Source: a virus. Taken from it: 53,878 nucleotides of DNA. Made by a program: the position numbers and the translations under genes. Shown piece by piece: positions 2,832 to 34,053 of the stretch; the stretch's first letter is position 1; the number at the start of each line of letters is the position of its first letter. The DNA is taken from IMG/VR virus record IMGVR_UViG_3300013232_000048. One strand, 5' to 3'. The notes beneath the pieces are model-generated. The model was given only the letters and a program-made list of their open reading frames with translations. It made no database searches and was not told the origin of the DNA.

Positions 2832-3064
2832 GTAGTGTATTTGGGTCTTTTTTGATTTTTTGAAACTTGTCGTACTCGTTTTTCCGCCAGCGGATCAATA
2901 TCATCGTCTAGTCCACAAGGTTTATCTTTTGGCTGTCCCAGTGTTGCCACGGCATCTCTGACAATTTTTACTGCCTGCTGTTGAGTCAGACATGGATTCA
3001 GTTTAGAAGGTGCATCACCGCAAGGTGCGGCATCCAATAGTTCTAGGGCTTCCTTAAGCTTCAT
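2828..3064 (-). CDS. hypothetical protein
   Basis: 78-aa ORF that is translationally coupled to the genes on either side. Confidence 0.4.
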   Translation of the reverse strand: MKLKEALELLDAAPCGDAPSKLNPCLTQQQAVKIVRDAVATLGQPKDKPCGLDDDIDPLAEKRVRQVSKNQKRPKYTT

Positions 3065-3722: not shown

Positions 3723-4004
3723 TTAGGTCAGTGTCTTGCCGACGCTTGGGTGGGAGCGTACTCGGTTGTGGATATGATTTTTCAGTGCGACTTCACATGA
3801 AATGAGGAAGTCTTGGCTCACTCGGGTAAACATTTTGGCTCGTTGGGGTGCGGGATTAGATTGGGCAACTTCCAGGGCAAACTTTTTGCATTTGGACGCA
3901 CAGATCAGTTTGAACTTACTTGGAGCAGAAAAGGTTTCGGGTGTTGTAATTGGTTCATTCATAGTGGCAGAGTATAGTGGAAAGTGGTGATTTGTCAACA
4001 ACAT
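3723..4004 (-). CDS. hypothetical protein
   Basis: 93-aa ORF. The internal Met (MNEPITTPE) is a plausible alternative start. Confidence 0.3.
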   Translation of the reverse strand: MLLTNHHFPLYSATMNEPITTPETFSAPSKFKLICASKCKKFALEVAQSNPAPQRAKMFTRVSQDFLISCEVALKNHIHNRVRSHPSVGKTLT

Positions 4005-4259: not shown

Positions 4260-4916
4260 GTGGGCGATATTTTATCCACATTATGTTACTTTCGTGGTAT
4301 ATTTATATCTATGATTAGATTAAAGGAACTATTGCTTGAATATGTAACAGGGACAATCACGTCTGGTGATATTTACAACTTCTATTTTCTGTTCTATTAC
4401 AATCAGTTTGAACCCAATCTTCTTAACACGTCCTACGCCAGAGACATTGAGCGAGAGTATCTTTATGCCATCAAAGAGAAATACCTGTCAACCTTCAAAG
4501 CTTTACTTGCGGAACAGATAAACAAATACATTGGTCGTAAGAGAATGGATCCTGATTTTCCAACCAAACAAGTTTCCGAGACAGATTCCGCCGAAACATT
4601 GGAATTTTTGATGGCTAAGACATTTCGCAGTGATATGAAGCGGCGCAATGATGTGTGGAATATTGCTGCCCGAGCTACGGCTCAGCTAGAAAAGATTACT
4701 AATCCCAAACTTCTTTATGCACCCATCAATGCATTGAATATGGCCGTTCATAATACTAACACTTTAATTCTTGGAAAACTTGGTGGTGGGTATGGTCTGA
4801 TGCAAGCGTATGATGCCTGTGCGAATGCAGACCCAAAATATTATGTGGGCAGAGTATCCAAAGACTTAAGAGATTTGCTTAAAAATCCTGAACCGGAAGA
4901 ACCTCCGCAATTCTAA
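4260..4916 (+). CDS. hypothetical protein sharing a Gly-rich module with the N-terminus of the giant protein
   Basis: 218-aa ORF. Its motif LGKLGGGYGLMQAYDACANADPKYYV resembles WSKLGGGAGS...DPKYSGISAW and WGGGYGGPKWGAG in the 3220-aa protein. Confidence 0.5.
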   Translation: MGDILSTLCYFRGIFISMIRLKELLLEYVTGTITSGDIYNFYFLFYYNQFEPNLLNTSYARDIEREYLYAIKEKYLSTFKALLAEQINKYIGRKRMDPDFPTKQVSETDSAETLEFLMAKTFRSDMKRRNDVWNIAARATAQLEKITNPKLLYAPINALNMAVHNTNTLILGKLGGGYGLMQAYDACANADPKYYVGRVSKDLRDLLKNPEPEEPPQF

Positions 4917-5350: not shown

Positions 5351-5380
5351 GTAACTTCTGGCATATTTATAGACATCAGT

Positions 5381-5785
5381 GGGGCCGTAATGGTCTCGAT
5401 TAAGTTCTTTGACTATAGAGAGTACGTAGAGGTTGATCATCTGGCCTCTTAAAAAGAAGATCAAAAAATCAACAGCCAACCGTATTAACGCACTGGCCTC
5501 GATCAACTTTGAGTTCGACATGAACGAAGAGTTGGTTACTGAAGAACTGGCGACAGTTTAACTTTGGTAAGTAGGAATAGATTCTCGCTATAAACCTATT
5601 GAGTAAGCAGCGAGGAAAACTGCTGGTAGTTCTAATTACCAGACTGATTCGAAAAGCCAGTATGCTGATCTATGTCCGACAGTTTGCTCATTTGTCATGC
5701 GGACGAATAAAAAAATGAGATAAACGTATAGTGCTCTGTAGAATAAGTATTTAACACCCGGGTTCGATTCCCGGCGGCTCCACCA
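5381..5785 (+). ncRNA. ssrA: tmRNA (ssrA-like), about 405 nt with encoded CCA
   Basis: The 5' end GGGGCCGTAATGGTCTCGAT resembles the E. coli tmRNA 5' end GGGGCUGAUUCUGGAUUCGAC. The 3' end GGGTTCGATTCCCGGCGGCTCCACCA resembles GGGUUCAACUCCCGCCAGCUCCACCA. The 7-bp acceptor GGGGCCG/CGGCTCC has one G-U pair. An internal ORF-like tag ends ...EELATV-TAA. Confidence 0.75.
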
Positions 5786-5835
5786 CTTCTCTTGTTTTAT
5801 TCCTTTCTTTCGCCATATTTATTCTATGTACTATT

Positions 5836-8800
5836 ATGGCTATTTCTCTAAAAGAACAACTCAATCAGGCCCAACAGATTACGGAAGTCATCTATCGTGC
5901 TCCTATATTTGGATATAACTATTATCAGCACGGAAATCATAGTAAAGGTCGAGAGCAAGGAAGACGAATGTTTTATGATTTCTATGCCATGGAATTGCTA
6001 TGGTCTAAGTTGGGTGGTGGCGCTGGGTCTAAAGCTGAACAGAACCGAGTCAACCAAGCTAAAGCAAAAGTTGCAGCGGGAACGGCTACTGACGACGATT
6101 ATTTTTATGCTAACCTAGACCCAAAATATTCGGGCATTTCTGCGTGGCATGGTACTAGTGCTGTAGCGGGTGCGGTGATTCTTCCTCACAAACTTCAAAC
6201 TACGGTTGATGATTTGTACGAACAAGTAACTCGGGCGGTATCCAAAGAATTGCTTGACTATGTTCGGTTTGCTGTTATCCAAGAATTTCAGTATCTTATA
6301 TCATATTCTGATGGATGGTCGAAGTTTCGTCAGGAAATCGTTTCTCATTATAATTCGAGCAGTACAATCACCAAACAACAATTTGATGCCATTGTTAATA
6401 AGCGCATTCCCGAAATGCGACCATATCCATCAGTAGTTAAACGGTTGCTGAAGTATTCCAAGTACTTTAGTTCGATGCATACGATAGATGATAAAGATCC
6501 ATTTGATGTAACTCGTAATTTGTCTGGTAAACCGCCCGTAGGACCCTCCGAACCAGAAGATCCATTTATTGAACCTCAAGGACATGAGGAAGATGAACCT
6601 ATTTCAATGCCGGGTGGTGAAGAACCTCCACCAGAAGGCGAAGAAATTCCAGGCCGTGAGTTTGGTACACAAGGAGATGTTGTTGGAAATATTCCCCCAG
6701 GATGGCCAGATGATAAAGATGAAGATGAAGACGAAGATGAAAAAAATAAGTTGACAGAACAACTATTGACTGAAGAAGAAATCAATCCGAAAAAAATAAA
6801 AAAGGTAATGGCAGCTATGAAAAAAGCCGATATTACTTTGGATGATATCGAGAAGTCGTACAACTATATTCCATGGGGAGGCGGTTATGGTGGTCCAAAA
6901 TGGGGTGCTGGGGCGTTGGCACTTTTGAAACTCATGGAAGCTAGAAAGACGATGGATGTTGAAGGACTTAACTCCATTATTGACCACATTTACGATTTGC
7001 AACATAATACGGGTGCATTATTGAATAAAGGACCGATGTATGTTGAGGATGAAGATTTGAATCGCCGATACAAAATTAGACATATTGCCCGGTTCCTTCC
7101 ACATGTATCTTTGGTAGTCAAAGGAATTATTACTATTTGTTTGAAGTATCTTGAGAATGATCCTGCTCAAGCGAAGCTGGAGATGGAAAAAGAAAAAATT
7201 GTTAGCAGTCCTACAAAAGACATGACTCCCGAACAACAAGCGTTTCTGAAAGAAAAGGGATTCAATTTTGTAAACGCAGGTAGGTGTCGGGCGGCGATTA
7301 ACTTCAAGAATAAAATGGGCGCATCAGTGTCGGGGGTTTATTATCAAATAACAGCACACGCCGATGGTCGTTTTTCTGTTAACGATAACTTGATGGCGGA
7401 TATTCAAGTGTTTAACACGTTTGAAGAAGTTCAGAAATTCATTCCACATTTTGAAGCTGACATTAAGAAAGGTGGAGTGTCTAGTTCTTCTTCTTCTCAT
7501 GCTGCACCGATCAAATCTGAAAAAGAGATTTATAAACAATCTCATTCTCGTATAAAACTTCCTGCGGATAAAGAGACGGATTTGCTTTATCAAGCAAAAA
7601 TGGGTTGGAGAAATAGTCAGAAGTACAAGGCATATTTCCCAGGTAGTAAGCGATTTGAATTGTATGCATTTTCGGATGGAAGTTTTCTGGCCACTTACAG
7701 TGATTCAATGGAATTCAAAGTTTTTACTGATTGGATAAATGCGTTTAATTATTGTAAAACGGAAGGTGCAAAAGCATTGGATTATCCCGATAAAGATGGA
7801 GCACTGGCTGCCATTGGTAAGGGTGGGTCTGGTAATGTTGTATCACCATCGGAACCTGTGGGGGCACCGGTAGTACCATCGAAACCTGTAGTGACCGTGG
7901 ATTACTATTTGGAACCATTAGAGGTACAATCAATTAAACAATTGCTTTCTGCGGCATCATTTACAGCTATTCATGTTATTGGTCAGGATAGTACTGGAAT
8001 GTATAATATTGGTACTTTGCAAAATGGACACTTATTTTCCGTAGGTCATAAACTCAATACTGCTTATGGGAAAACTTACAGAGTGGCGCATAACCTTCCT
8101 GGTGGAGTACCTGAAACTTGGACATTTTCAGACTGGAAACAAACCTATGAGTTTCTTCAGAAAAACCTACAGGGATTGATAAAGAATATACCAATATCTT
8201 CGACCAAATCATTTCTATCTGCCACAACTCCATTAGCATATACACCCACAGGTAATGATCTTCCAGCTTATTCTCCAAGCAAAGCATCTTATGCGATGCA
8301 CACTGGAATACAAACTCCTCCAAAGCATACAATTCGGTTGACTAAAGAAGACGAAGCATTGGTCACAGCGGCTGGGTTTATACCAAAAATGTTAAGTGGC
8401 GATGTTTGGTATATTCATAAGTTTGCCAAAGATACCATCAAGTTTTATCCTAACAATACTGCAAAACTATTGTTTACCAGTCAATCATCCACTGTTCCTG
8501 GAGTCAACTTTAATAATATAGAAAAAATGTTAGTGTGGGTACAGAAAAACTATACGTCAACGACTACTAAATCACCCCTTGAGACTGGAGTTCCCACGGC
8601 GGCTCCTGTAGCAGGTGGTGGAACCCAGTTGGGGTCAATGATGGAAAAGATTCTAATATCTGCTGGTTTTGCTTGGAATGATGCAACAAAGACTTATGAG
8701 GATGCTAATAAACCTGGCGCTCCGAATACTATAGTTATCAAGCCCAATAAAGCTTCGGTTTTAATGGTTAAACCGAATACAGCTTACAATGATGAAGTAC

Positions 8801-11800
8801 ATCACTTTGCTAATCTGTTGGATTTAATGACATATATTAAAGACGTATATCCTACGGATAAAAAAAAAAGTAAGCCAGCAGTAGCTCCAACAGTTGCCGT
8901 CAGTCCTGACGTAGCAAAAATGACCAAGTCGGACTTGCATGAAAAGTTATTTTCTTTGGGGTATAAAACTACATTAAAAGTTGTTTCAAACGGAGTGGAG
9001 TACTTACACCCCTCAAATGGATCGGTTATAATCCTTTACTATGATGGTAAATCACTTTATATTTCTCCAGCCGCTACAATCAAATATGCATTCAATACTT
9101 TTCAAGAGTTGAGTGATTACCTTGATAAGTTATATCCGGGTGGTGGGAGTATGGATTTTTCCAAATTGCCGAAGGAACCAACTGGTGGTGGAATAACCAA
9201 TGAAGAATACGAGCAATTGAAATCTCTTGCGGGCAAACACGGATATATTTCTTCGTGGATGGGCAGTCAAGGTCAAGCTGGAGTAAGTGATCATGTATCT
9301 ATTTATAAAAAACCTGTTGATGAATCGCCTCCGGCAAAATATCCTCTTGTCTATACAGTCTGGAAGTATGGTGAATATTATCAAATAAATGATGTCAACG
9401 GAAACCCCTTATCATTAACTGATGGGTTTGAAAAACTAAAACAAAGTATTGAGAAGTTACTTGATCCGAAAGAAGCACTCATAACTCTATTAGAACTTCT
9501 TAAACAGGGTGGATTTCAATACGTCAAAGGTCCATCGAAGAATGGTGGGTATGAATATGCCAATACAAAAAATGAGTCCTTCCAATATTTTCCTCATAAC
9601 AAAACTTCGACCTTGTACGATGCGGCAGTTAGTAACATGGTTTTCTTTGACAATTTGCAACAAGCAGTGGATTATCTAACCAAGAAATATGGAAACTTAA
9701 CTCCATCTCCAGTGGCAAAAGATGTTGAAGTTCCATTTGCAAAAGTGGGAAAGATAACTGTCTTTCCTTCGTGGGCAACTGACAAACTGCGTGACTTGAT
9801 GGAAAAGGGAAAGTTCTACTATAAGGGTCCAACATCGGGGGGTGTAGGTTATCGCTATGATAACGAAGCTGAAGATTGGATAACTCTATACAAAGATGGA
9901 TCGTCGGAAGTCTATGATAAGAAACATGGAAACTCCATTGCCTACAATAACTTACCCGATTTGATGGAGTACATGCAGGAGAAGTATGGTTCATCGCCTG
10001 CTCCAGAAGAAGATGTTCCAACGAAAGAAGTACCGTCAACCATAGATTTATTAGGTGATTTGCCAGCGGCTCTTGCCAAAGGTGGATTTAAGTATGCGTC
10101 TCCGGTTGATAGTAGTGATGATAGTTATAGTAGTGGAAGTGTTTATGATGGTAACGATGGAACTAGGATCGTTTTTTATGACAGTGGAAAATCAAACATC
10201 TATTATTCGAACGGCTCTTCTATATCGTTGAATACTCCCAATGAGTTAGTTCAATGGCTGATAGACAAGTATGGTCAACCCTATCAATCTCACACCGAAG
10301 AACTGTATGCGAGATTGAAACAGTATGGATACAAAGATTATCCTTACTCGAACCCACAATTTGTAACGTGGATACATCCGACATCGACAGACCGAATACA
10401 GGTACAGGATGATGGACATGTTATTATTGATCCTGCTGTTACTGCCGAGGAAAAAGGAGCGGTATCAATTTATCTTGATACACCGCAGCAGTTACTTGAA
10501 TATTTGGATAAAAAACATGGGCCTGCTAAGTTGAAGTTGAAGCAGATTCATGAAGAGTTGCCGAAGTTGTTGAAAGAAATTGGGTTTGTGTTAGAAGTCC
10601 TGCCACATATAAGTTTGAATCAGGTTTATAAACATCCACAAGGAAGTACATTTACCGTTCACGAAAAAAATAAGGCGTATGAAATCCATGTCGGGTCAAT
10701 AAAAGTAACTTACCAAAGTATTACGGATGCCATCTATTTCCTTAATCAGTATTTCCATACGGGAGGAAATAACGCCGAAGCTTCAATGGTTACAGGAAAC
10801 ACCGGAAATACTGCTCTTGATGCTGCTATCAATAATGCAGGATTTAAGTATCATGGTACTGCGGAAGATACGTCGGCGATGATATTCTATTCTAACGACG
10901 GAGTCCAACTTAAAATCTTCGACGATAAATCATCTATTCATAATTGGCCTCAAACAGCTATGGGTGGTAAGCAAAAAGTAACCACTTTTAATGACTTTGA
11001 AAGTCTTACAGAGTTCTTGGGTCAGTTGCACGGAAGGAAAGAACCCAAACCAGAAGATTTTCCATTTCCTCAATTGTTGGCACAGTGGGAAGATTTGTCT
11101 GGTAAGTTGAAAGACTATGGGTTTACTTATAAAACCACAAGTAAATCGGGGAATGTTAGTTACAAGGTCTATTCTCATGTAAACCTAGTCAACTTAACAG
11201 TTTATGCTGATGGAAAATCTGCTTATATGGGAAAGGCGTCTGTAGGTGGGCTTACATTCAATACTTTCAAAGAGTTGGAATCCTTTTTGGATACACACTA
11301 TGGTAAAAAAGAAGACTATGCCATTAGCTATTACGATAATTTGGGTCCAAGTCAAACTGCGTATTCCATTCGCTTGAAAGAAGAAGATGAAAAACAACTT
11401 AAGAGTTTGGGTTGGGTGTGGGTACCATCAGCAGAAAGTAGTACGGTATCTGCTTATGTGCATAAAGATACTGCCAAGAGATTAGTATTCTACAACATGC
11501 TTCTTGCTGTAAATAAAGATAAACCAACTGCGGCTTTGCTCGATAAAAGTTTCTATAATTTGATGGACTTCAAAGGTAAGTTTATTCCCGAAGTTATAGC
11601 TTATTTCATTGAACATCCTGAGAAAATATCGGATGCCAATCCTCCTGGAGGAAAATACAGTGTTCATTATTATGATGAAGTGGGACCCGATCAATCACAT
11701 TACAGTATTCGTTTGAGAAAGGAAGATGAGGAGATACTGGAGGACCACGGGTTTATCTGGCGTCCTGCTCATAATAGTGGTGATCCTAACTGGTATCAAA

Positions 11801-14800
11801 ACACAGTCAACGAAACCTATTTGATGTTTTACAACATGTCTTTGCCTGACAATAAATCAGGTCCTGCCGCCAAACTTACACATAAGTATGTAGAACCTAT
11901 TACTAGTTGGACTACGATTGACTTGACGTTGAAATGGGTAACAGACCACATAGCATCAATCAAAGGAGGAAACTATAGTGTTCATTATTATAACGTAGTG
12001 GGTCCAGGACAAGAAGCCAAGACGATTCGTTTGAAGAAGAAAGATGAAGCTGTCCTTTTGGAATTGGGATACAAATGGGTACCATCGTGGGTGCAAGGTA
12101 AACCAAGTGCTTATGTCAATATTATTGGAGGCAAACGCATTGAGTTTTACAACAAAAATCTGGAGCAGTATAGTGGAAACTCTAGTATTGGTGTGCGTTT
12201 GAAAAATTATGAGGGTACAAAAACACTAAATGAATGGATTGAGATTGAAAATGCATTGTTATCGTTATCGTTAAGTGAAGGAAAAAATAAAGCATCTAAA
12301 CAGAGTATATTGACTTATGCAGACGCCAACCCGATTATAAATAATCATCTTCCAACGGTTCTTACTGCGGATGCCAATCTGTATGATCTGATAACATTTA
12401 AGGAGGATGAAAAAAGCGGACAGAAAGAAATGGATCAGAGTACGGGTGAAATATGGGTATCGTATGAAGGAAAGTTGAGGTTTGCCATTGGAAAACTAAA
12501 TGTTAATGATTGCCTGGAACCATCATGGTATATTCGTCAAGTTACTGGGGTAGATAAAATTAAGTTGGGTGAAGAGATTTATACTTTTTACACCGCCAAC
12601 AATGCAATACAGTATATCAATAAATATAGCTTACAGTTTTTAACCGGCGTTCCAATAACGCAGAGCTTGTTACTAAATAAAAAACCAAAAGGAATTGCCG
12701 GCAAAGACCTTTTACCACTTCATTTTGCCGTACTAGGCATAGCCGCAGGGTTTAGTCAAGTGGGGAATGAACAGGAAGGTGTGGTTTATACACATGAAAA
12801 TGGAGAATTTTCATTTACTTGGACTCCTACAAGTATTACTTGGTTTGCCGGTGAGGTCGGCATTAAAGAAGTTACTCCTCTTGCTCCCGCAACTACAACC
12901 GAATTTATTGCGAGCGCACTGGAAAATTGTGGCCCGGAGATGAATGTTGCTGAATTGGACAAAGTATTTTGTTCGGCGGCGCAATCGAGAAAAGAAAAGA
13001 TATTTGATCGTATGCTTAAAATAGCAAGGAAGCATAACGGTGCCAATATGGAAGGAACTCGGTTACATAAGGCGTTGACAGACAAATGGTTTATATGGAA
13101 TGATTTCGATCATGTGTATATGAACGAGAGACTATCTCAAGTTGTGGTAGTAACTCTGTCTAAAAATGTTGCTTACAATGAATATCATCTGTACTGGATA
13201 AAGGTAGATGGTAGTATTGCTCATGCCACACCGGGGGAAACATTGTTGATGGCGTTTATAGGTCCTAATGGTTCATTGAAACAATACCATCAGACTTTCA
13301 AGTCTGCAAAAAACCTTACTTTGACGCCAAGTGGTCATTTATACAAGGTGCATAGTAATGAAGCCAATGCCGACCGTATTAAAGTAAATGAACATGATAC
13401 TGAACTTCTTGAAAAGTGCGGATTTGTTTGGAATTCTTCCTTTTTTGCTTATACTAATTTAGATGAAGATTCATTTTCATTTACCAACACCGATAAAGCA
13501 CAATATTGGAATGCCGCAGAGTTTATGGGATATGGATTTGATGAAATCTCTCAAGCACTGACGTTTGCTATTCAAAAATACATAACTATGGCAGTAGGTA
13601 CTGGAGTGCATCCAACTCAAGCACATTCCAAAATGATTACAACTCCCATCACTGCTCCAAATAAAATGGCTTCCGAAGAAAGTTGGGGTCCGTTTAGTGA
13701 TGAGGCGTATGATAAAGATTATCCAGAGGATGAAGATGACGTGGATATGATTGACTTGAATGACCAAGATACTGGTGAATTGAAAAAACTTGGCTTTGAG
13801 CATGATCCAAAAAACCATAGTTACGTGAAGCACATTCAGAAGGGAGAAAAACCAAACATGAAGTATAAGTTTATCGAAGCAAAGAAGAAAGGCAGTGATA
13901 AGGGTAAAAAAGGCAAACATATTGCTAAGCAGTTTGATTTACCACTGGATGACCCAAAGCACGAGGAACCAGTTGGAGAACTAGATCAGTATGAAGTTAT
14001 TTATGCATTCAATACTGGCAATGCAACGTGGACTTTAACTGACGATCCAGGACCTGGTGGGGATGAAACACAGATGGAAGATGGGACAATCAAGGAAGTC
14101 TTAACCTTTGTTTGGAAGCGATGGTCCAAGATCAAATGGAGTGAGCTACCTTCGGATAATGTATCAAAGAAACTTAGTGAAATGGGATTTACATTCACAG
14201 GAGAAGTAGGTACTGCGGGATATACATATACTAAAAAGATAGGAGAATTTACAAACAAGGTTCAGATATATCCTCCAGATAAGTTTATTTACGTTGTATA
14301 TCAAACCGCTGGCGGATCAACAGCCGAACAAGTTTTCAAATATGAAGATACGATTGACGGAGGCATAAAGTATTTGCAGACGCATGTTCATGCTCCTCCA
14401 CCAAAGAAGAACCCATTACCAAAGAAGTCTAAGCATATTACGACCGTGGAAGATGCGATTCTTAATGGTGGGGGGAGATATATGGATGCTCCATTAGAAT
14501 GGAAACAATATGCTCCGTATGCTCCAGTTAAATCTCCAAAATCTACGACGGTGTATCCAGCACAAATACATAATGAAATATTAAACCTTGGATTTGTTTG
14601 GAGTGACAATCTTGGGATTTATACAAAAAATTACGCCGATGTCAATAAATGGGAAGCAGTAAAATATGAAGATGAATTGGCGTTTTATTTTTATCCAGCT
14701 ACAAGTTGGGATATGTCACGACGGTATTTTGTCTCTAAAAACTCCACTGCGGTTCTTAACAAAATACACATTATTGATAGTTGGAAAAGCGAAAAATCTA

Positions 14801-15498
14801 AAATTTGGGGTGGAGGAACTGGTGAAGTTCCATACAGTGGATTTGATTATGTTAACTTTTACCACAAGGAGCAGGGGCTTCCTACTAATATGAGTATTCA
14901 ACTTGAACCCAAGGACGAAAAGGTTATGGAAGATATGGGATTTAACTTGAACCATTTGCCTGCAACATCCAAATCATACAAATATGCTTATGTCAAAGAT
15001 GCCGAGCGAATGTTCTTTTTTGCTGGTGGTGGGGTGGCCCCTGGAGCGGCGTATTGGACAGACAATACAGGAGTTCAACAATACTTTCCAACAGTAAAGC
15101 AAGCAATGCAGTTTTTGTGGGATAAATATGCTCCAAAGAAAAAGGTGACTGGTGAGATGCCGTTTAGTGATTATCCATATCATAACCTATGGAAGTTACA
15201 AAACATCAACCAACACGTTGCCATTAAGTTAGTGGACGATGACTACGAGGTAATGAAGAGTATGGGATTTAGAGAAAAGTTTAACAAGGGTCTTGGACCC
15301 TATTATCAGAATGGAATTGAAGATATAACATTTTATGCTGATGGAACGGCGAAGTATTGGGAAAACAACACTTCGGGCAACCCTCCTACAAAGTTTCCTT
15401 CGGTAAAAGCTGCAATGACAAAACTCTGGAGAAAACACGCTCCTTACATTGAAGAAACCATTGGTTACGAAGACCTAACTGATCTTATGATGGCATAG
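5836..15498 (+). CDS. giant 3220-aa repeat protein of unknown function
   Basis: Single uninterrupted 9663-nt ORF. It contains many divergent repeats of about 90-110 aa with the pattern GF(K/T)Y...YxDG.s.Y...tF.el..fL...YG, an acidic DEDEDEDE stretch and a KKGSDKGKKGK stretch. Confidence 0.85.
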   Translation: MAISLKEQLNQAQQITEVIYRAPIFGYNYYQHGNHSKGREQGRRMFYDFYAMELLWSKLGGGAGSKAEQNRVNQAKAKVAAGTATDDDYFYANLDPKYSGISAWHGTSAVAGAVILPHKLQTTVDDLYEQVTRAVSKELLDYVRFAVIQEFQYLISYSDGWSKFRQEIVSHYNSSSTITKQQFDAIVNKRIPEMRPYPSVVKRLLKYSKYFSSMHTIDDKDPFDVTRNLSGKPPVGPSEPEDPFIEPQGHEEDEPISMPGGEEPPPEGEEIPGREFGTQGDVVGNIPPGWPDDKDEDEDEDEKNKLTEQLLTEEEINPKKIKKVMAAMKKADITLDDIEKSYNYIPWGGGYGGPKWGAGALALLKLMEARKTMDVEGLNSIIDHIYDLQHNTGALLNKGPMYVEDEDLNRRYKIRHIARFLPHVSLVVKGIITICLKYLENDPAQAKLEMEKEKIVSSPTKDMTPEQQAFLKEKGFNFVNAGRCRAAINFKNKMGASVSGVYYQITAHADGRFSVNDNLMADIQVFNTFEEVQKFIPHFEADIKKGGVSSSSSSHAAPIKSEKEIYKQSHSRIKLPADKETDLLYQAKMGWRNSQKYKAYFPGSKRFELYAFSDGSFLATYSDSMEFKVFTDWINAFNYCKTEGAKALDYPDKDGALAAIGKGGSGNVVSPSEPVGAPVVPSKPVVTVDYYLEPLEVQSIKQLLSAASFTAIHVIGQDSTGMYNIGTLQNGHLFSVGHKLNTAYGKTYRVAHNLPGGVPETWTFSDWKQTYEFLQKNLQGLIKNIPISSTKSFLSATTPLAYTPTGNDLPAYSPSKASYAMHTGIQTPPKHTIRLTKEDEALVTAAGFIPKMLSGDVWYIHKFAKDTIKFYPNNTAKLLFTSQSSTVPGVNFNNIEKMLVWVQKNYTSTTTKSPLETGVPTAAPVAGGGTQLGSMMEKILISAGFAWNDATKTYEDANKPGAPNTIVIKPNKASVLMVKPNTAYNDEVHHFANLLDLMTYIKDVYPTDKKKSKPAVAPTVAVSPDVAKMTKSDLHEKLFSLGYKTTLKVVSNGVEYLHPSNGSVIILYYDGKSLYISPAATIKYAFNTFQELSDYLDKLYPGGGSMDFSKLPKEPTGGGITNEEYEQLKSLAGKHGYISSWMGSQGQAGVSDHVSIYKKPVDESPPAKYPLVYTVWKYGEYYQINDVNGNPLSLTDGFEKLKQSIEKLLDPKEALITLLELLKQGGFQYVKGPSKNGGYEYANTKNESFQYFPHNKTSTLYDAAVSNMVFFDNLQQAVDYLTKKYGNLTPSPVAKDVEVPFAKVGKITVFPSWATDKLRDLMEKGKFYYKGPTSGGVGYRYDNEAEDWITLYKDGSSEVYDKKHGNSIAYNNLPDLMEYMQEKYGSSPAPEEDVPTKEVPSTIDLLGDLPAALAKGGFKYASPVDSSDDSYSSGSVYDGNDGTRIVFYDSGKSNIYYSNGSSISLNTPNELVQWLIDKYGQPYQSHTEELYARLKQYGYKDYPYSNPQFVTWIHPTSTDRIQVQDDGHVIIDPAVTAEEKGAVSIYLDTPQQLLEYLDKKHGPAKLKLKQIHEELPKLLKEIGFVLEVLPHISLNQVYKHPQGSTFTVHEKNKAYEIHVGSIKVTYQSITDAIYFLNQYFHTGGNNAEASMVTGNTGNTALDAAINNAGFKYHGTAEDTSAMIFYSNDGVQLKIFDDKSSIHNWPQTAMGGKQKVTTFNDFESLTEFLGQLHGRKEPKPEDFPFPQLLAQWEDLSGKLKDYGFTYKTTSKSGNVSYKVYSHVNLVNLTVYADGKSAYMGKASVGGLTFNTFKELESFLDTHYGKKEDYAISYYDNLGPSQTAYSIRLKEEDEKQLKSLGWVWVPSAESSTVSAYVHKDTAKRLVFYNMLLAVNKDKPTAALLDKSFYNLMDFKGKFIPEVIAYFIEHPEKISDANPPGGKYSVHYYDEVGPDQSHYSIRLRKEDEEILEDHGFIWRPAHNSGDPNWYQNTVNETYLMFYNMSLPDNKSGPAAKLTHKYVEPITSWTTIDLTLKWVTDHIASIKGGNYSVHYYNVVGPGQEAKTIRLKKKDEAVLLELGYKWVPSWVQGKPSAYVNIIGGKRIEFYNKNLEQYSGNSSIGVRLKNYEGTKTLNEWIEIENALLSLSLSEGKNKASKQSILTYADANPIINNHLPTVLTADANLYDLITFKEDEKSGQKEMDQSTGEIWVSYEGKLRFAIGKLNVNDCLEPSWYIRQVTGVDKIKLGEEIYTFYTANNAIQYINKYSLQFLTGVPITQSLLLNKKPKGIAGKDLLPLHFAVLGIAAGFSQVGNEQEGVVYTHENGEFSFTWTPTSITWFAGEVGIKEVTPLAPATTTEFIASALENCGPEMNVAELDKVFCSAAQSRKEKIFDRMLKIARKHNGANMEGTRLHKALTDKWFIWNDFDHVYMNERLSQVVVVTLSKNVAYNEYHLYWIKVDGSIAHATPGETLLMAFIGPNGSLKQYHQTFKSAKNLTLTPSGHLYKVHSNEANADRIKVNEHDTELLEKCGFVWNSSFFAYTNLDEDSFSFTNTDKAQYWNAAEFMGYGFDEISQALTFAIQKYITMAVGTGVHPTQAHSKMITTPITAPNKMASEESWGPFSDEAYDKDYPEDEDDVDMIDLNDQDTGELKKLGFEHDPKNHSYVKHIQKGEKPNMKYKFIEAKKKGSDKGKKGKHIAKQFDLPLDDPKHEEPVGELDQYEVIYAFNTGNATWTLTDDPGPGGDETQMEDGTIKEVLTFVWKRWSKIKWSELPSDNVSKKLSEMGFTFTGEVGTAGYTYTKKIGEFTNKVQIYPPDKFIYVVYQTAGGSTAEQVFKYEDTIDGGIKYLQTHVHAPPPKKNPLPKKSKHITTVEDAILNGGGRYMDAPLEWKQYAPYAPVKSPKSTTVYPAQIHNEILNLGFVWSDNLGIYTKNYADVNKWEAVKYEDELAFYFYPATSWDMSRRYFVSKNSTAVLNKIHIIDSWKSEKSKIWGGGTGEVPYSGFDYVNFYHKEQGLPTNMSIQLEPKDEKVMEDMGFNLNHLPATSKSYKYAYVKDAERMFFFAGGGVAPGAAYWTDNTGVQQYFPTVKQAMQFLWDKYAPKKKVTGEMPFSDYPYHNLWKLQNINQHVAIKLVDDDYEVMKSMGFREKFNKGLGPYYQNGIEDITFYADGTAKYWENNTSGNPPTKFPSVKAAMTKLWRKHAPYIEETIGYEDLTDLMMA

Positions 15499-15827
15499 TG
15501 GGCGGGATAGCTACGATTCGGGTTTGTTGTTTTCCATTTTTGTCGGTGAAGGATATTTTGTATCCTATCTCACAGTCATCTTTTCCAAACCCGTGGGTTC
15601 TTTCCATTTGAGTTATTTGTTGAGTGGGAAGTCTAGGAGGTTCTGGGGGTAAAACACGTCTTGGAGATGGATGCAGCTTCCGTCCCAGGAACCGTTTGAA
15701 GTTATTCTGCATCGAGTTAAACTGTGTTTGATCCATAAAAAAAGATGTTTTGGTCTTTCCATACATATTTACATTCAGACACACGATTGATATTTATCAA
15801 TCAAATATACACACAGAAAGATGAAAT

Positions 15828-16769
15828 ATGACACAAACAGATTTCTCGCCTCTCGATGCCCACGGCGTCGGTTCCCAAAATATCATCAAACAAAAGATCA
15901 ACAACGGAGATACTCTTACCTCCGATGACGTTGGTGCTTTAATAACTGAACTACAACGAAATGTGCAATCACCAGCCGTAGATAAAATGGCAATCGAAGT
16001 TAGACAAACTCTTCTTACTGCATCGGACAGAGAAGTGGCGCTAACTGGAGAAGTATTGAAAGAAGTTATGAAAGAATTCATGCCTGAAGATAGAGTTCCG
16101 CCTGCCTTATCTACTAACCCTGTGAAACGGAAAGCATTCGAAGAAACCAAAAAGATAATAGATAACTTTCGTGAAAAAACGGCAAACTATCCTAAGTACA
16201 TATCGTATGAAGGGTCAATGGTGTTATGCGTCATGCTCTCAATGAAAGATGTAGCAAGTGTACATATATCTAACCTTCCACAAGTGGACCAAGATGTCAT
16301 TAAAGGATTGTTTGTGGGGGCTCCCAATAAATGCGTTACTAACTTCAGCGTAAAGTTTGATAATGACAAGGATTTTATCCTATTAGATTTTTATGCACAC
16401 AATGATTTCACCGTTAAAATGCTAAACTCGGTTGCTCATCCAAGACCTGAAGATTTGAAAGATGTTGGAGAAGTAGTCCCCATTGAAAATGATGGAGATC
16501 GCATTGCCGTTGGTGGTAAAATTATTATGGACAAACGAAACATCCAACGTCTGGGTGGAATAGTAACTGGAGATCATAAGCCAGAAATGGATGTAGAGTT
16601 AGCTCCAAAACGACAACCTGTTAGTGGTCGCAATGCGTTTGAGATTCGCACTGATATTATGCAAATGGCTTTGGATTGGTCGGTGGCTAATAACAAAACA
16701 GGAATGTCACCTGCCGATGTAGTCAATGTTGCCAAAGTTTTCTATTCATTCGTTGAAAATAGAAGGTAA
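15828..16769 (+). CDS. hypothetical protein
   Basis: 313-aa ORF and first gene of a tightly packed plus-strand cluster. It is preceded by an A-rich leader. Confidence 0.6.
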   Translation: MTQTDFSPLDAHGVGSQNIIKQKINNGDTLTSDDVGALITELQRNVQSPAVDKMAIEVRQTLLTASDREVALTGEVLKEVMKEFMPEDRVPPALSTNPVKRKAFEETKKIIDNFREKTANYPKYISYEGSMVLCVMLSMKDVASVHISNLPQVDQDVIKGLFVGAPNKCVTNFSVKFDNDKDFILLDFYAHNDFTVKMLNSVAHPRPEDLKDVGEVVPIENDGDRIAVGGKIIMDKRNIQRLGGIVTGDHKPEMDVELAPKRQPVSGRNAFEIRTDIMQMALDWSVANNKTGMSPADVVNVAKVFYSFVENRR

Positions 16770-16771
16770 AT

Positions 16772-17074
16772 ATGGCCGAGATCATCGAAATAACAGATGA
16801 TGATTTGATAGAATGGGATAAGAATATTGCAAGGTTTATTCGTTTATCCGATTATCAAAAAATGAAAAAGTTGTTGCAATCCATTGATACACAGTTGGAA
16901 CCGTTGAAAGTTGATGATACGTTTGTCCCAAAAAATGCCCGCCAAGGATCGATTCAGTATCATAACAAGGTTAAAAAGGTGGCCCTTGCCCGACAACGTG
17001 AGCGGGTGATAAAAAAGATGTCGGAGCTTGAAGCACTCATCAAACAGGATATTGATTTATTAAAACAGTTATGA
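16772..17074 (+). CDS. hypothetical protein
   Basis: 100-aa ORF that starts 3 nt after the stop of the previous gene. Confidence 0.5.
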   Translation: MAEIIEITDDDLIEWDKNIARFIRLSDYQKMKKLLQSIDTQLEPLKVDDTFVPKNARQGSIQYHNKVKKVALARQRERVIKKMSELEALIKQDIDLLKQL

Positions 17075-17107: not shown

Positions 17108-18202
17108 ATGATAGATTACACAAAAAGATCCCTGGAGGGACTATGGGTTGGAGATTGCATTGGAAATCTTGGTCAACTTTACTTCGTTCACGATATTCTT
17201 AAAGCCCTTGAAGGCGGATTAGCCAAGTTCGGCGGGCAACTGGATAAGTTTCAAAAAGGATTCGTTTATTCCGATGATACGGAAGAAGCCATCGTGCTAT
17301 ACAATCACTTGATGAAGTCTGGAGGTCGAACTCCATTCATTGATCAAGATATGTTGGCCTTAGAGTTTGCTGCTCGTTATATGGAGCGTGACCCCGATGG
17401 AGAAATCTATGGGTATGGTCTAAACACCCGCAAAGTCCTCCGTGACATTTATGAAGGAGTGCCGTGGCGAGAAGCCAATAAGATTATCAAAAAAAGTGAA
17501 GGTATGCCTTCCCATATTGATAGTTTGGTAAATAGCTTATCCCAAGGTAAGGGTTTCAAAGATGCAATGGGCGATGTTAATACTGCTCTACAAAAACAAC
17601 GAACTGACCAGATGAATAAAGTCAAAGAAGGTTCCTGTGGCAATGGTTCGGCAATGAGAGTTGCACCGCTGGGAGCATTTCTTGGTGGTATGGTTGATCT
17701 TCAACCTGATAGAATGATTGCCGAAGCAGCACTTCAAGCGCAAGTTACACATTGTCATCCCGAAGGTATTGCTGGGTCTATTGCTATTACTACGGCAGCA
17801 TTAGTTGTTGCGAGTACGCATCAATCTGCCGAACCATTTATGGCTAGTAAAGGGTTATTACAAAAAATCATTCAGTATGTTCCAGAGAGTGAAGTTAGAA
17901 ACGGAATCAAAAAAGCAATGGATCTTCCGGTTGAAACTCCCATCGGAAAGGCAATAGAAGTCCTTGGCAATGGAACTCACGTTACATGTCAGGATACAGT
18001 GCCTCTTTGTTGTTGGTTGATTTCCAAACACTTACAGAAATATTCTCCCGAAGAAACATATGAGAAAGCAATTATTGAAACTTCAATGGCGTTCGGAGAT
18101 GTAGATACTAACTGCGCTATCGTGGGTGGTGTTGTAGGCATTGTCAGTCCTCCACCTGACAAATGGAAGAAGTTTTGCAATCCAATGGAAGGAGTAATAT
18201 GA
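17108..18202 (+). CDS. ADP-ribosylglycohydrolase family protein (ARH/DraG-like)
   Basis: The N-terminal motif SLEGLWVGDCIGN, the central GSCGNGSAMRVAPLG and the C-terminal GDVDTNCAIVGGVVG match the conserved ARH family motifs (metal-binding Asp/Thr). Confidence 0.8.
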   Translation: MIDYTKRSLEGLWVGDCIGNLGQLYFVHDILKALEGGLAKFGGQLDKFQKGFVYSDDTEEAIVLYNHLMKSGGRTPFIDQDMLALEFAARYMERDPDGEIYGYGLNTRKVLRDIYEGVPWREANKIIKKSEGMPSHIDSLVNSLSQGKGFKDAMGDVNTALQKQRTDQMNKVKEGSCGNGSAMRVAPLGAFLGGMVDLQPDRMIAEAALQAQVTHCHPEGIAGSIAITTAALVVASTHQSAEPFMASKGLLQKIIQYVPESEVRNGIKKAMDLPVETPIGKAIEVLGNGTHVTCQDTVPLCCWLISKHLQKYSPEETYEKAIIETSMAFGDVDTNCAIVGGVVGIVSPPPDKWKKFCNPMEGVI

Positions 18203-18804
18203 GCTTATCGCTAATGGCAATCATCCGTGACGATCCCGATTTCGGGAAACGCATTCAAAAGAAAGTTGAAGAGATCAAACAGGACAAAGCAAACTTGTTG
18301 AACTTAGCTGACGATTATGGACAAAGGTACCAACAAGAAATCATTGAAGGTACTGAGTTGAGAAACCGAATGCTCACCGAAGGTACTTCCAAGGGATTGA
18401 GCGAAGAACAGATTATGGCAAGTTATGGGAAGTTTGTTCCCACTGTTTATACGCCCATCCTGAACTTGTTGTATTTTCTCATTATGGAATCCGCCGACGA
18501 TCCATATTATGGAGATAAGCGTTATCAAAAACGAACTCGGTTAGACGAGCAATTTGGTCACTTGCGGGAGGAAGAAGTAAAAAGTGAAGTATTGAAAGAA
18601 CCTCCGAAGATGGAAGAGTTTTTGTATGGAACTCTTACTCTGGAACAGTTTGATGTACTGAAGAAGTTGAAGGCATTGGCACAATCTCCCAATATCAATG
18701 AAGCTACGTTGGCATTCAAAAAGTGTCGGGAATTATGTGCAAAATATGAGCTTGACTATGAGAGGATTCCATGCTATGTTAAGAAAAAGGAGAATCGTGT
18801 ATGA
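18163..18804 (+). CDS. hypothetical protein
   Basis: 213-aa ORF whose start overlaps the end of the ARH gene. Confidence 0.5.
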   Translation: MEEVLQSNGRSNMSLSLMAIIRDDPDFGKRIQKKVEEIKQDKANLLNLADDYGQRYQQEIIEGTELRNRMLTEGTSKGLSEEQIMASYGKFVPTVYTPILNLLYFLIMESADDPYYGDKRYQKRTRLDEQFGHLREEEVKSEVLKEPPKMEEFLYGTLTLEQFDVLKKLKALAQSPNINEATLAFKKCRELCAKYELDYERIPCYVKKKENRV

Positions 18805-19256
18805 AAGAAATAACTATGAAGTCGGGTACAAGGGCGGAAATACTTGAATATCTGCGGGCAAAAGGAATCAAGACTATTACAGTTAACTCAGATGCATCTG
18901 GAGATAACAAGGTTTGGTCTGAAACCCCGAACCCCGGGGAATACTTTGTGTTTTCTCATAATTCTATTGAAATGCAAATGGATAACTTTATCAACGAAGG
19001 AAGTCCCGTTGTATCGATTTGTATTTCACAGGCGGATGGTAAAGCATGTCGGGAGCAGTTTTTTGTTACCGATTATGCCAGTATCAGGACGGATATGGAG
19101 ATCGAAAAATTGGACGACTCAGATATTAGAGAGCGGCGAATAAACGCCATTAAAACAGTTATGGCAATGGAGTTGGATGCCGAAGAGCGGTGGGATCGTA
19201 TCTTGAAGATTGTGGACCAATTTAGAGGAGTTTCTTTCGCATTTGGACCTGTATGA
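18801..19256 (+). CDS. hypothetical protein
   Basis: 151-aa ORF with an ATGA overlap onto the previous gene and an AAGGAG SD upstream. Confidence 0.5.
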   Translation: MKEITMKSGTRAEILEYLRAKGIKTITVNSDASGDNKVWSETPNPGEYFVFSHNSIEMQMDNFINEGSPVVSICISQADGKACREQFFVTDYASIRTDMEIEKLDDSDIRERRINAIKTVMAMELDAEERWDRILKIVDQFRGVSFAFGPV

Positions 19257-19468
19257 TGACCTGGCCAGAGTTTCAAGATTATGTAAACGAAAACATAGAT
19301 TTCACCAAGCAATGTATTGTTTTCAAATGTTTGAAGTGTGGACGGAAACATTATCATACAGGCATCACCGAATACGTTTACAAGTTACGATATAAACACA
19401 CTTGTTTTTATTGTGATGGAGAAGAAAAAGAAGTTTATGGAGGACCATTCAATGGAACTATTCACTAA
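19253..19468 (+). CDS. small zinc-ribbon protein
   Basis: 71 aa with CLKCGRKH...CFYCDG (two CxxC pairs). Confidence 0.4.
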   Translation: MMTWPEFQDYVNENIDFTKQCIVFKCLKCGRKHYHTGITEYVYKLRYKHTCFYCDGEEKEVYGGPFNGTIH

Positions 19469-20138
19469 AGAAGAAATTGAGAAGTATGGGTTCATTTATG
19501 AACCTGACGAAACTAAGTGTAAGACCGCAAAAACGGGTCCACATTACAAGTGTAACTATTACAAGGACGGAGTGTTTACTGACACCGCAGGTCCAGTTCT
19601 TACTGATGAATGGAAAGAGTTAGTTGTTGAACATATCAAGTCCAGAATTCCACAGTGGACATATTTTCATTCCATATTTGTGCCAGATGTTTCTCCTATG
19701 AGTGGAGAAGGAGTTAGGTGTCAGTTTGTAATGGTACGTGGACATGGGAATGAACTTGTAGATAAATGGTTCAAGACTGGGTTTCTTGATGATATAGCAT
19801 TGGATCAATATCCCGAGGCAGCATTGTTTTTCCATCATGTTGCCAAAGAGATTATCCGTTCAAATCCAACAAAGGGAACTCCAGAATGGGATAGGTTTGA
19901 TAAGTTGGCAGGTCTTGTATTACCTGTTGCTCATGATTTGTTCAAGAAGTGTTATCCCCACACCCCAGACCCAAAATGGATAATGGAACAATGTGAAAAG
20001 TTTTTCGATGAACATCAAAGTCTATACGAAGACCTGAAACAGGGGATAGCACAAGACCATGAGCGAGAGTTCGGGGAGTTGTGTTTGATGGAATTAGAAA
20101 GGAGTTTGAGTTATGAAATGTTCCGCCGGACCAAATGA
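19437..20138 (+). CDS. hypothetical protein (track ORF 19338-20138 trimmed to ATG 19437)
   Basis: Long ORF. The upstream part overlaps the previous gene and GGAG precedes ATG 19437. Confidence 0.45.
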   Translation: MEDHSMELFTKEEIEKYGFIYEPDETKCKTAKTGPHYKCNYYKDGVFTDTAGPVLTDEWKELVVEHIKSRIPQWTYFHSIFVPDVSPMSGEGVRCQFVMVRGHGNELVDKWFKTGFLDDIALDQYPEAALFFHHVAKEIIRSNPTKGTPEWDRFDKLAGLVLPVAHDLFKKCYPHTPDPKWIMEQCEKFFDEHQSLYEDLKQGIAQDHEREFGELCLMELERSLSYEMFRRTK

Positions 20139-20394
20139 TTATCATTTTCTAGCCAAACAAAAACTTGTATTAACTTTGCGTGATTGTCAGCATAAAGTTA
20201 CGAATGTTATAACTGCTTCGGTAAACTGGGATTTGTTTGAAGATCTTATTCCTCACCACGGAGAAACGGCGGCTAAAGATGCGTGGTGGGAAGTATATTT
20301 GTGGATGAAAGAACAAGAAAAAATACAAGATGATAGCTTACAAACTGTTCAGAAAACGGAAGAATGGAACTCTGGGTCCATTGTTCATCAATAG
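20113..20394 (+). CDS. hypothetical protein
   Basis: 93-aa ORF that overlaps the next ORF in another frame. Confidence 0.3.
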   Translation: MKCSAGPNDYHFLAKQKLVLTLRDCQHKVTNVITASVNWDLFEDLIPHHGETAAKDAWWEVYLWMKEQEKIQDDSLQTVQKTEEWNSGSIVHQ

Positions 20395-20641
20395 AACTTT
20401 GATAATACCTCAAGGTCAGTGGTTGAAAGCAGAAGCTCATCGAACCAAACGATTTAAGTTTAGACCTGGATGGCATTGTTGTGCTTTTCCTAAAGCACCG
20501 CATTTGTCTATGAAAGATCGAGTGTGGTGTGAAGTTGAAATCGAAGATTTTGTGGGATTTGTTAGACCCGAAAGTCAAGGTGGATTGTGGTATTTAGCAA
20601 AAAACTTGCGGTTGATTGGAGAAATGAAACAGAGACATTGA
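20330..20641 (+). CDS. hypothetical protein
   Basis: 103-aa ORF that is basic and Trp/Cys-containing. It overlaps the ORF at 20113-20394, so one of the two may be spurious. Confidence 0.3.
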   Translation: MIAYKLFRKRKNGTLGPLFINRTLIIPQGQWLKAEAHRTKRFKFRPGWHCCAFPKAPHLSMKDRVWCEVEIEDFVGFVRPESQGGLWYLAKNLRLIGEMKQRH

Positions 20642-20801
20642 TATGAATACCATTGAAAAGATTGTTGTTGCGTGCGCCGGTATTGTTCTGGTGGTAGTGA
20701 TGGGAATAATTTGTCTGTTTACAACGAGGCCAAATCCGTTTCCACATCAAGATCATCCTGGCATTCCAAGGAATTGACATAAAACAATACACGATATCTA
20801 A

Positions 20802-21425
20802 ATGGGTTATTTTAATATGAACTACACTTGTCATAGCGGAGGATGTCCCGGCGCAGATATGGCGTGGGAGCGATTGGGTAAAAGATATGGCGTCAAAACC
20901 ATCGCTTACTCATTTCACAACCATGTTCACGAGGGGGAGAACCCAAAGATTTTGACCGTGGACGAACTAGCAGAGGGATGGACACACGTTAAGATGGCAG
21001 ACAGGACGTTGAAGAAGAACGTGGAGAGTCTTGATTCGCCGTATATGAGAAACCTCCTTTGTCGGAACTGGTTTCAGGTCAAAAACTCCGATGTGGTGAT
21101 CGCCATAGGTAAACTTATAGACCAACATACGGTTGGCGGAGGTACTGGTTGGGCAGTCCAAATGGCTATTGACGCTGACAAACCAGTGTTTCTATTCCTT
21201 CAAGACGCTATGGGAGGCGGTTGGTTTAGGTATATGCCCATCGTGGGGTTTGAATGGAATCGTGGTGAGATACCAAGACTGACAGAGAATTTTGCGGGTA
21301 TTGGTACTCGGGCATTGAACCAGTACGGTGAAGCAGAAATAGACAGAGTATATCGTCTAACTTGTATTGACGATTACAATGAAAAATTGAAAGGTTCGGG
21401 ATTTAGAAAGATGTATCCACAATGA
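20802..21425 (+). CDS. SLOG-superfamily (DprA/Smf/LOG-like) Rossmann-fold nucleotide-binding protein
   Basis: HSGGCPGADMAWE resembles the SGGA(R/K)GID motif. VVIAIGKLIDQHTVGGGTGWAVQMAIDADKPVFLF resembles the second DprA/LOG motif (GGGxG ... vfavp). Confidence 0.55.
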   Translation: MGYFNMNYTCHSGGCPGADMAWERLGKRYGVKTIAYSFHNHVHEGENPKILTVDELAEGWTHVKMADRTLKKNVESLDSPYMRNLLCRNWFQVKNSDVVIAIGKLIDQHTVGGGTGWAVQMAIDADKPVFLFLQDAMGGGWFRYMPIVGFEWNRGEIPRLTENFAGIGTRALNQYGEAEIDRVYRLTCIDDYNEKLKGSGFRKMYPQ

Positions 21426-23113: not shown

Positions 23114-23148
23114 TATTTTTGGTTGGCGAGACATATTTATAAGACACC

Positions 23149-33990: not shown

Positions 33991-34053
33991 AATATAAATA
34001 ATCTAAACCACAAATACTCGCTATTCTACATATGATGGGCGATATTTATTGGT

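Follow-up and report, generated by a model that had tools for sequence, protein, structure and literature searches.

The window considered here, the whole stretch of 53,878 nt from the virus record IMGVR_UViG_3300013232_000048, carries on its plus strand a giant open reading frame (ORF) of 3,220 aa (5836..15498, stop codon included), which starts with ATG and is free of internal stops. Its first residues, MAISLKEQL, correspond to the conserved N-terminus of a protein family described below. As the original prediction had proposed, this is a single 9.7-kb gene directly after a transfer-messenger RNA (tmRNA; 5381..5785, plus strand), with a gap of 51 nt before the uninterrupted 3,220-codon frame. 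The ORF is a single, real gene of a huge phage that is probably of the Mahaphage type, and its product is a modular protein built from a novel head and a novel repeat, with no recognisable enzyme domain.

That the frame results from genes merged through a frameshift, an assembly error or collapsed repeats, or that it encodes a tape-measure-type ruler, is hardly credible. In favour of an artefact, the gene is split in two related loci. At locus L001 it consists of ORFs of 732 aa (10001-12199) and 105 aa (12180-12497), which overlap in different frames, the shorter one encoding the terminal repeat along with the conserved peptide of the C-terminus; at L010 the overlapping ORFs 9914-13126 and 13063-16989 also lie in different frames. 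Programmed frameshifting, gene decay or sequencing error could underlie these splits. Against a merger speak the 3,220 codons kept open in DNA of ~39-40% G+C, an identical protein on two contigs, and colinear homologues of 2,867-3,587 aa from independent data sets and assemblies. Tandem repeats at the DNA level are absent from the gene, the lone direct repeat being 83 nt long with 75% identity; therefore, both assembly collapse and recent tandem expansion are excluded, in agreement with the colinear homologues. A tape measure protein would be long, mostly alpha-helical and encoded in a tail module; here, the structural models consist of globular alpha+beta domains without long helices, and zero tail genes were recognised in the window.

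Database searches returned almost nothing. The giant protein had no match in Pfam (E ≤ 1), PHROGs or NCBIfam except for a weak one between aa 340-408 and phrog_20946, a PHROG without an assigned function. Sequence profiles of the Protein Data Bank (PDB) gave no significant match for the repeat or the head, Pfam detected nothing in the individual repeats (E ≤ 5) or in the individual copies of head sub-domain B, and none of 17 long homologues (~48,000 residues) contained a Pfam domain. The earlier impression that the protein lacks a recognisable enzyme motif is thus borne out by Pfam, NCBIfam and the PDB sequences. A Foldseek search of the head model against BFVD yielded nothing below E 0.8. Apart from the weak PHROG match, head and repeat are therefore without a family in Pfam, NCBIfam, PDB or BFVD.

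The head comprises approximately the first 440 aa and is conserved in all relatives. Its all-alpha sub-domain A (aa 1-221; 5836..6498, plus strand), delimited by the alignments A2 and A3, a hidden Markov model (HMM) and an AlphaFold2 (AF2) model, is marked by the motifs FYDFYAM, QEFxYL, FR..YN and VKRLLKxSKY. The corresponding HMM scores between 1e-40 and 1e-100 in ~50 family members, and the predicted local distance difference test (pLDDT) is mostly >90. An acidic and proline-rich loop follows (aa 225-313; 6508..6774, plus strand), which includes DDKDEDEDEDEKNK, varies in length and sequence in A2 and is predicted to be disordered (pLDDT <50 at aa 248-311). Sub-domain B (aa 314-442; 6775..7161, plus strand), also all-alpha, contains invariant columns in the alignments A3 and A6, with the motifs W..GG..WG.G and DHIYDLxHNTGxLLNKG...DLxRR. 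The window protein scores E 3e-88 for domain A and E 2.5e-62 for domain B, followed by 19 full repeats. Modelled from an alignment of 46 sequences, the entire head is all-alpha (pLDDT 81; predicted template modelling score, pTM, 0.76) with disordered segments at aa 97-111 and 248-311, and the pTM of the model suggests that sub-domains A and B form a single unit. About 25 head residues are invariant, many of them polar or Trp/Gly; in the family alignment they include F46, D48, Y50, A51, E150, W347, G352, G353, W356, D383, H390, N391, N397, K398, G399, R411 and S425. Such invariance hints at a pocket or an active site, not merely at packing.

L014, a distant relative of 618 aa (9533-11389, plus strand, in the 222.7-kb record IMGVR_UViG_3300010352_001565), has the head in compact form (FYDFYA ... 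SSYGGKAW ... DHVFDMQHNTGTVLNK) with sub-domain B present; the protein had no Pfam match. In place of the long repeat array, its head is followed by a Cys-containing, leucine-rich-repeat-like region. As the head can thus carry a different C-terminal region, it is the constant unit of these proteins. The gene adjoining the one for the L014 head encodes a cell-wall hydrolase.

The remainder of the giant protein is a repeat array (7168..15468, plus strand), supported by repeat HMMs, cross-validation, alignment A1 and the AF2 model. Iterated HMMs delimited 19-20 units of 87-108 aa (~95 aa), 19 of which are clear alpha-beta5-alpha units; the gaps between them (aa 657-816, 1112-1204, 2157-2498, 2595-2761 and 2866-3010) are read as ~6-7 additional, degenerate units. 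With these included the count is ~26, close to the 25-30 repeats originally estimated. For a non-circular test, the array was divided at aa 1744 and a separate HMM was built from the units of each half. The first-half HMM recovered every listed unit of the second half, mostly with 8-36 bits, and the second-half HMM recovered nearly all units of the first half, mostly with 4-26 bits and three near or below 3 bits, compared with 1.6 bits for the best of 20 shuffled controls. Together with the HMM-delimited units, this cross-validation substantiates the periodicity noticed at the outset. BLASTP of fragments against the whole protein also gave many off-diagonal matches, the best being a triplet at aa 1838-2156 (37-47% identity) and a pair at aa 2995-3203 (36%).

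Paralogous repeats share core positions only, namely L...L...GF.(W/Y), Y.Y, I.FY.DG and F.T..EL..YL...YG. Their conserved residues are limited to core hydrophobic, aromatic and turn positions, and no polar position is conserved across them in alignment A1. The AF2 model of one repeat (aa 1745-1832; pLDDT 87) consists of a helix, five strands and a further helix, which by this model makes the repeat a new domain with a generic alpha+beta fold. The linkers between repeats are short and rich in P, S, T, G and K. Poly-acidic and poly-lysine stretches, which had also been pointed out before, were located at aa 289-306 and 2626-2637 for the acidic runs and, for one rich in Lys, at aa 2683-2694. Single-domain paralogues of the repeat were not found elsewhere in the window.

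Several segments of the array could be followed through the family. The proximal repeats 1-5 (aa 445-1017; 7168..8886, plus strand), including the degenerate unit at aa 657-816, align with 31-50% identity in 56-93% of a set of 57 family members and are also recognisable in the family consensus. The most degenerate stretch (aa 2157-2498; 12304..13329, plus strand), which corresponds to ~3 units and to which the repeat HMM is blind, is kept in long homologues, where it aligns to P0016, P0018, P0014, P0024 and P0027. At the end of the array stands a double repeat (aa 3011-3211; 14866..15468, plus strand) of two units with 36% identity, kept at the C-terminal end of long members, with matches that stop within ~10 residues of their C-termini. 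The C-terminal peptide itself (..APYIEETIGYEDLTDLMMA; 15445..15495, plus strand) was defined from the C-termini of ~20 long homologues and follows the family consensus IEExxYKxxMxxxLE.

The family was explored by an exhaustive profile search with the repeat alignment against 1.84 billion cluster representatives (E ≤ 1e-3), which retrieved 344 proteins, 32 of them at E ≤ 1e-30. Among the best 150 of the 344, ~50 have domain A, domain B and then 2-20 full repeats, while the rest include fragments. At 50% identity there are at least ~50 clusters with the full layout, 730-3,600 aa in length. The layout, i.e., A, B and then at least two alpha-beta5-alpha repeats, is also that of the window protein. 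Repeat number differs strongly among related genomes, from 2-3 to at least 20; the short forms P0001 and P0002 (~740 aa) have 3 repeats. The window protein is colinear over nearly its full length with P0014 (3,580 aa), P0018 (3,022 aa) and P0015 (3,206 aa) at 31-37% identity; therefore, the individual units are ancient, orthologous and separately maintained. Across the 57 members, aa 1-1000 are aligned in 56-97% and the remaining distal array in 5-29%.

Proteins with HA domains (PF03457) formed the lowest-scoring matches of the profile search. At positions ~8-34 of alignment A1, the repeat carries xIxLTxEDExxLxxxGFxW, the motif that ends HA domains. The likeness consists in a local motif of 20-25 residues, xIkLTeExixxLxxxGFxW, which covers the repeat's first strand and helix, and the match is confined to profile positions ~8-47. 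Multi-copy HA proteins surfaced with E-values from 1e-16 to 1e-7 because this short motif is shared and its score summed over copies. HA domains are ~64 aa long and helical and lack a beta-sheet part. As only the local motif is shared and PF03457 did not match the giant protein even at E ≤ 1, failing to reach the gathering score, membership in the HA family was rejected. We also compared the repeat with two-layer alpha+beta folds, namely the Mediator Med17 C-domain and Med20, the C-terminal 'double-wing' of T4 MotA, coronavirus SUD-C, frataxin/CyaY, TriTu and CdiI. Sequence identities were 5-17% with zero sequence-profile matches, and unlike the repeat none of these domains forms a long tandem array.

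The family was found in uncultured huge phages only. Among 50,697 phage records (INPHARED), neither megablast nor tblastn with the gene as query revealed a relative; in tblastn against the same collection, domain B alone gave nothing below E 0.8, and the conserved downstream neighbour had no cultured relative. The member P0020 (3,437 aa) is encoded on CACVFR010000001.1 (401,513 bp). Locus L004 belongs to GD_PHAGE_CIR_48_49, a circular phage genome from groundwater that was classified as Mahaphage by terminase and protein clustering, and the largest Mahaphage genomes were predicted to infect Bacteroidetes (Al-Shayeb et al. 2020, PMC7162821). The gene order of the window matches that of Mahaphage L004; terminase and capsid genes are absent from the window. 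The jumbo-phage context assumed in the original prediction agrees with the 33 tRNAs and the tmRNA of the window and with relatives that include a 401-kb circular Mahaphage genome.

The tmRNA upstream of the giant gene was missed by ARAGORN and detected by Rfam, matching RF00023 over the full-length model (model positions 1-374; 102.4 bits vs a gathering score of 47) with a tag reading frame present. Its tag is unusually long, ANRINALASINFEFDMNEELVTEELATV followed by the stop, and ends with ATV in place of the usual AA; similarly long tags, ending with VAVAA, ALAA, VSLAA, LALA, LAVA or AFA, are encoded by the tmRNAs of relatives. The orthologues of the giant gene are preceded by a tmRNA at a distance of 49-162 nt in L001, L003, L004, L007, L010 and L012 and of ~630-850 nt in L008 and L009. 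The pairing of tmRNA and giant gene thus exists in nine loci despite differing insertions in the flanks, such as genes with PKD domains in L007 or the presence or absence of an ART-PolyVal gene.

Just before the giant gene we found the promoter-like motif GCCATATTTAT (5812..5822, plus strand), 14 nt before the ATG and in the same place in L001, L004 and L007. There is no Shine-Dalgarno sequence between GCCATATTTAT and the ATG. In the window, the more general motif G.TATATTTAT(A) shows enrichment (21 matches vs 6.2 ± 2.7 expected), and its plus-strand sites include 4296-4306, 5360-5370, 5812-5822, 15790, 23130-23140, 25489, 27442, 34039-34049 and 49563. It sits 4-16 nt before several ATGs, that of the giant gene among them, and precedes the tmRNA, tRNA-Leu and tRNA-Pro by ~8-10 nt, counted from their 5' ends; in relatives it is kept before both the tmRNA and the giant gene. 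The distance of 4-16 nt to the ATG implies very short leaders without a Shine-Dalgarno sequence. The motif resembles the Bacteroidota -7 element, TAnnTTTG, and a promoter of Bacteroidota type would fit the missing Shine-Dalgarno sequences.

The array could in principle be a multivalent RNA- or DNA-binding device, possibly tied to the adjacent tmRNA and the tRNA island and organising, e.g., phage tRNAs, tmRNA or ribosomes, although we consider this quite improbable. It would agree with the tmRNA directly upstream in nine loci despite indels on both sides, with the 33 tRNA genes of the window, and with the local motif xIxLTxExxxxLxxxGFxW that the repeat has in common with HA domains. However, the protein is net acidic (net charge -49), single repeats range from -7 to +5, and no basic patch is conserved across them; moreover, each gene has its own promoter-like motif, so adjacency may be inherited synteny. 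The more specific idea of a translation-linked scaffold associated with RNA or ribosomes, acting with the tmRNA and the 33-tRNA island, e.g., by gathering phage tRNAs, tmRNA or ribosomes in a phage-controlled translation compartment, is a long shot that we rank lower still. It draws on the nine-locus tmRNA junction, on the promoter-like motif common to tmRNA, tRNAs and giant gene, and on the likeness of the repeat to nucleic-acid-binding alpha+beta modules, including the local HA motif.

ARAGORN called 33 tRNA genes, all on the plus strand, spread over 30 kb (23149-53401) and mixed with small ORFs; three are tRNA-Ile calls, one of them with anticodon TAT. An HNH endonuclease gene (25502-26242) lies within this region. 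An 851-aa ORF (41668-44223, plus strand) combines a major-vault-protein shoulder domain (PF11978, E 1.6e-21) with a Vault_3 repeat (PF17795); it is unusual for a phage to carry such a vault-like gene, here set among tRNA genes.

Gene order around the giant gene is kept in L001, L003, L004, L007 and L008. Four minus-strand genes are followed by the partner genes w4260 and w4922, the tmRNA and the giant gene, then in some loci by a convergent ART-PolyVal gene and a gene of 550 aa, and thereafter by w15828 and w16772. Further downstream are genes for an ADP-ribosylglycohydrolase, a DUF2786 protein and an R2K ATP-grasp protein, to which relatives add SIR2 and DSPc. These belong to an ADP-ribosylation/nicotinamide adenine dinucleotide (NAD) island (17108-22156, plus strand), whose counterparts are located at 22945-26856 in L007 and 23948-27666 in L008. 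In the window, its plus-strand genes include the ADP-ribosylglycohydrolase (17108-18202), DUF2786 (18163-18804), a DprA-like protein (20802-21425) and R2K ATP-grasp (21422-22156). In relatives, the island has in addition genes for SIR2, for a DSPc phosphatase and for a free-standing ART-PolyVal; the last is convergent with the giant gene, whose 3' end it overlaps in L004, L007 and L008. The window has neither ART-PolyVal nor the adjacent 550-aa gene. No structural gene was recognised in the 54-kb window, and the giant gene sits in an accessory, counter-defence-type region, not among recognisable structural genes. The most conserved protein of the neighbourhood is encoded by a 93-aa ORF (3723-4004, minus strand), with 56-72% identity in all relatives examined and no family match.

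One of the upstream partners, ORF 4260-4916 on the plus strand, had been thought to share an N-terminal module with the giant protein. It probably starts at the ATG at 4311 (MIRLKELL), which is closely preceded by the promoter-like motif, and then encodes a protein of ~201 aa (4311..4916). Its orthologues in L001, L007 and L008 are 40-45% identical and make it a syntenic partner. The proposed module is not supported, on several grounds. BLASTP between the two proteins found just ANxDPKY (6/7 residues, E 0.62); the KLGGGAG...DPKY of the giant protein sits in a variable insert missing from homologues; the L001 orthologue of the neighbour (44% identical) reads KLNNYYG and lacks DPKY; and profile-profile comparison of the neighbour with the head gave a probability of 0.5%.

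The convergent ART-PolyVal genes raise the possibility that the giant protein is packaged in the phage head and ejected with the DNA, like polyvalent or internal virion proteins, its small, independently folding domains on linkers allowing it to thread through the tail and to act at the start of infection, possibly with the ADP-ribosyltransferase ART-PolyVal. We regard this as unlikely. It would accord with the extreme N-terminus (M1, I3, L5; MAISLKEQL), which is invariant or nearly so, and with the [LI]xE motif that 29 of the 43 family N-termini contain among their first 12 residues; this motif resembles the T4-type prohead protease cleavage site. A Peptidase_S77 gene exists in the L004 phage, ART-PolyVal convergently overlaps the 3' end of the giant gene in L004, L007 and L008, and ART domains of its type have been reported in virion-embedded polyvalent proteins (PMC9503650). 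On the other hand, the [LI]xE motif occurs in just those 29 of 43 sequences, the first helix is modelled within the folded head, ART-PolyVal is absent from the window and most loci, and convergent genes are not co-transcribed. Furthermore, Pfam revealed no MuF, portal-associated or effector domain in the giant protein or the 17 long homologues. Polyvalent proteins are defined by having 2-15 distinct domains with effector or enzymatic functions (Iyer, Burroughs, Anand, de Souza & Aravind 2017, PMC5512222). The giant family resembles them as very large single phage polypeptides with counter-defence genes nearby (ART-PolyVal and SIR2 in relatives; ADP-ribosylglycohydrolase), but differs in having no recognisable effector in ~50,000 residues and, instead, one repeated non-catalytic fold and a novel head. 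As Pfam, PHROGs and NCBIfam did not identify two or more effector domains, nor Pfam a MuF or portal fusion, membership in the polyvalent proteins was rejected.

An appendage of the virion, for instance a fibre on head or tail, a whisker or a decoration, in which the head and the proximal repeats anchor and the distal array projects, is a somewhat better though still doubtful explanation. Taking ~26 domains of 3-4 nm each, we estimate a length of ~80-100 nm if extended as beads on a string. The conserved N-terminal 1,000 aa, the distal part varying in length and sequence, and the widely different repeat numbers among relatives match this reading, as do the three PKD-domain genes immediately upstream in L007, the Peptidase_S77 (prohead protease) gene 8 kb upstream in L004 and the general prior that giant phage ORFs are frequently structural. 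Some large proteins of huge phages were tentatively annotated as structural (Al-Shayeb et al. 2020, PMC7162821). Yet Ig-like, BIG, PKD, FN3, collagen and beta-helix domains are all missing according to Pfam (E ≤ 1 for the whole protein, E ≤ 5 per repeat), as is any other fibre domain, and the fold is alpha-beta5-alpha, not a beta-sandwich. The repeat thus belongs to no known repeat, fibre or adhesin family, as the Pfam searches of protein, repeats and homologues confirmed for the original prediction. The extreme C-terminus is conserved, not hypervariable as in receptor-binding tips, the 54-kb window is devoid of recognisable structural genes, and the invariant polar residues of the head fit a ligand or active site better than they fit a simple anchor. 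Arrays like those of T4 Hoc or of Ig-like, PKD and FN3 domains also consist of small tandem domains with variable copy number and a conserved N-terminal part; the giant protein differs in lacking their signature and in its other fold, much longer array and conserved C-terminal peptide.

Based on architecture and context, we tentatively favour the view that the giant protein serves host takeover as an extended, multivalent scaffold or adaptor. Its constant functional unit would be the head, which would either form a pocket for ligand binding or catalysis or offer a docking site. The C-terminal peptide would be a second docking point, and the array would provide both reach and numerous binding surfaces, each conserved in its own right, for macromolecules of the host or the phage. 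Conservation limited to the core across paralogues, combined with orthologous maintenance of each array position, fits domains of a shared fold with their own partners. Consistent with such a scaffold are also the constant head, the reality of the repeats, the retained C-terminal peptide, the syntenic accessory region with ADP-ribosylglycohydrolase, DUF2786 and R2K ATP-grasp, and the one promoter-like motif carried by the giant gene and the tRNA and tmRNA genes. By analogy, cellulosomal scaffoldins are similar in having many small globular domains, short Pro/Ser/Thr-rich linkers, diverged surfaces and docking elements at the ends; the giant protein differs by its alpha-beta5-alpha fold instead of the cohesin beta-sandwich, by having no secretion signal, by being phage-encoded, and in that no dockerin partner was identified.

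Several points weigh against the scaffold. Everything past the architecture is inference. Phage fibres, too, classically combine a conserved N-terminus with a distal part that varies, and very large phage proteins are often virion components. The association with the neighbourhood is weak because the whole region is syntenic in the clade, and ART-PolyVal is adjacent in just 3 of ~9 loci and missing in the window. Finally, the invariant polar residues of the head could indicate an enzyme, in which case 'scaffold' would be an incomplete description.

Giant unannotated proteins in huge phages are an already known phenomenon (PMC7162821); what is new here is a coherent family with two new domains, the head and the repeat. 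With its fixed layout, a five-fold range of lengths and a fixed position after the tmRNA and beside ADP-ribosylation/NAD genes, this family is tractable. Including head and repeat in domain databases could annotate several hundred metagenomic proteins (344 profile matches, at least ~50 clusters with the full architecture). If the array binds host factors, the family would represent a new type of takeover scaffold; if it forms a virion fibre, it would constitute a new structural building block.

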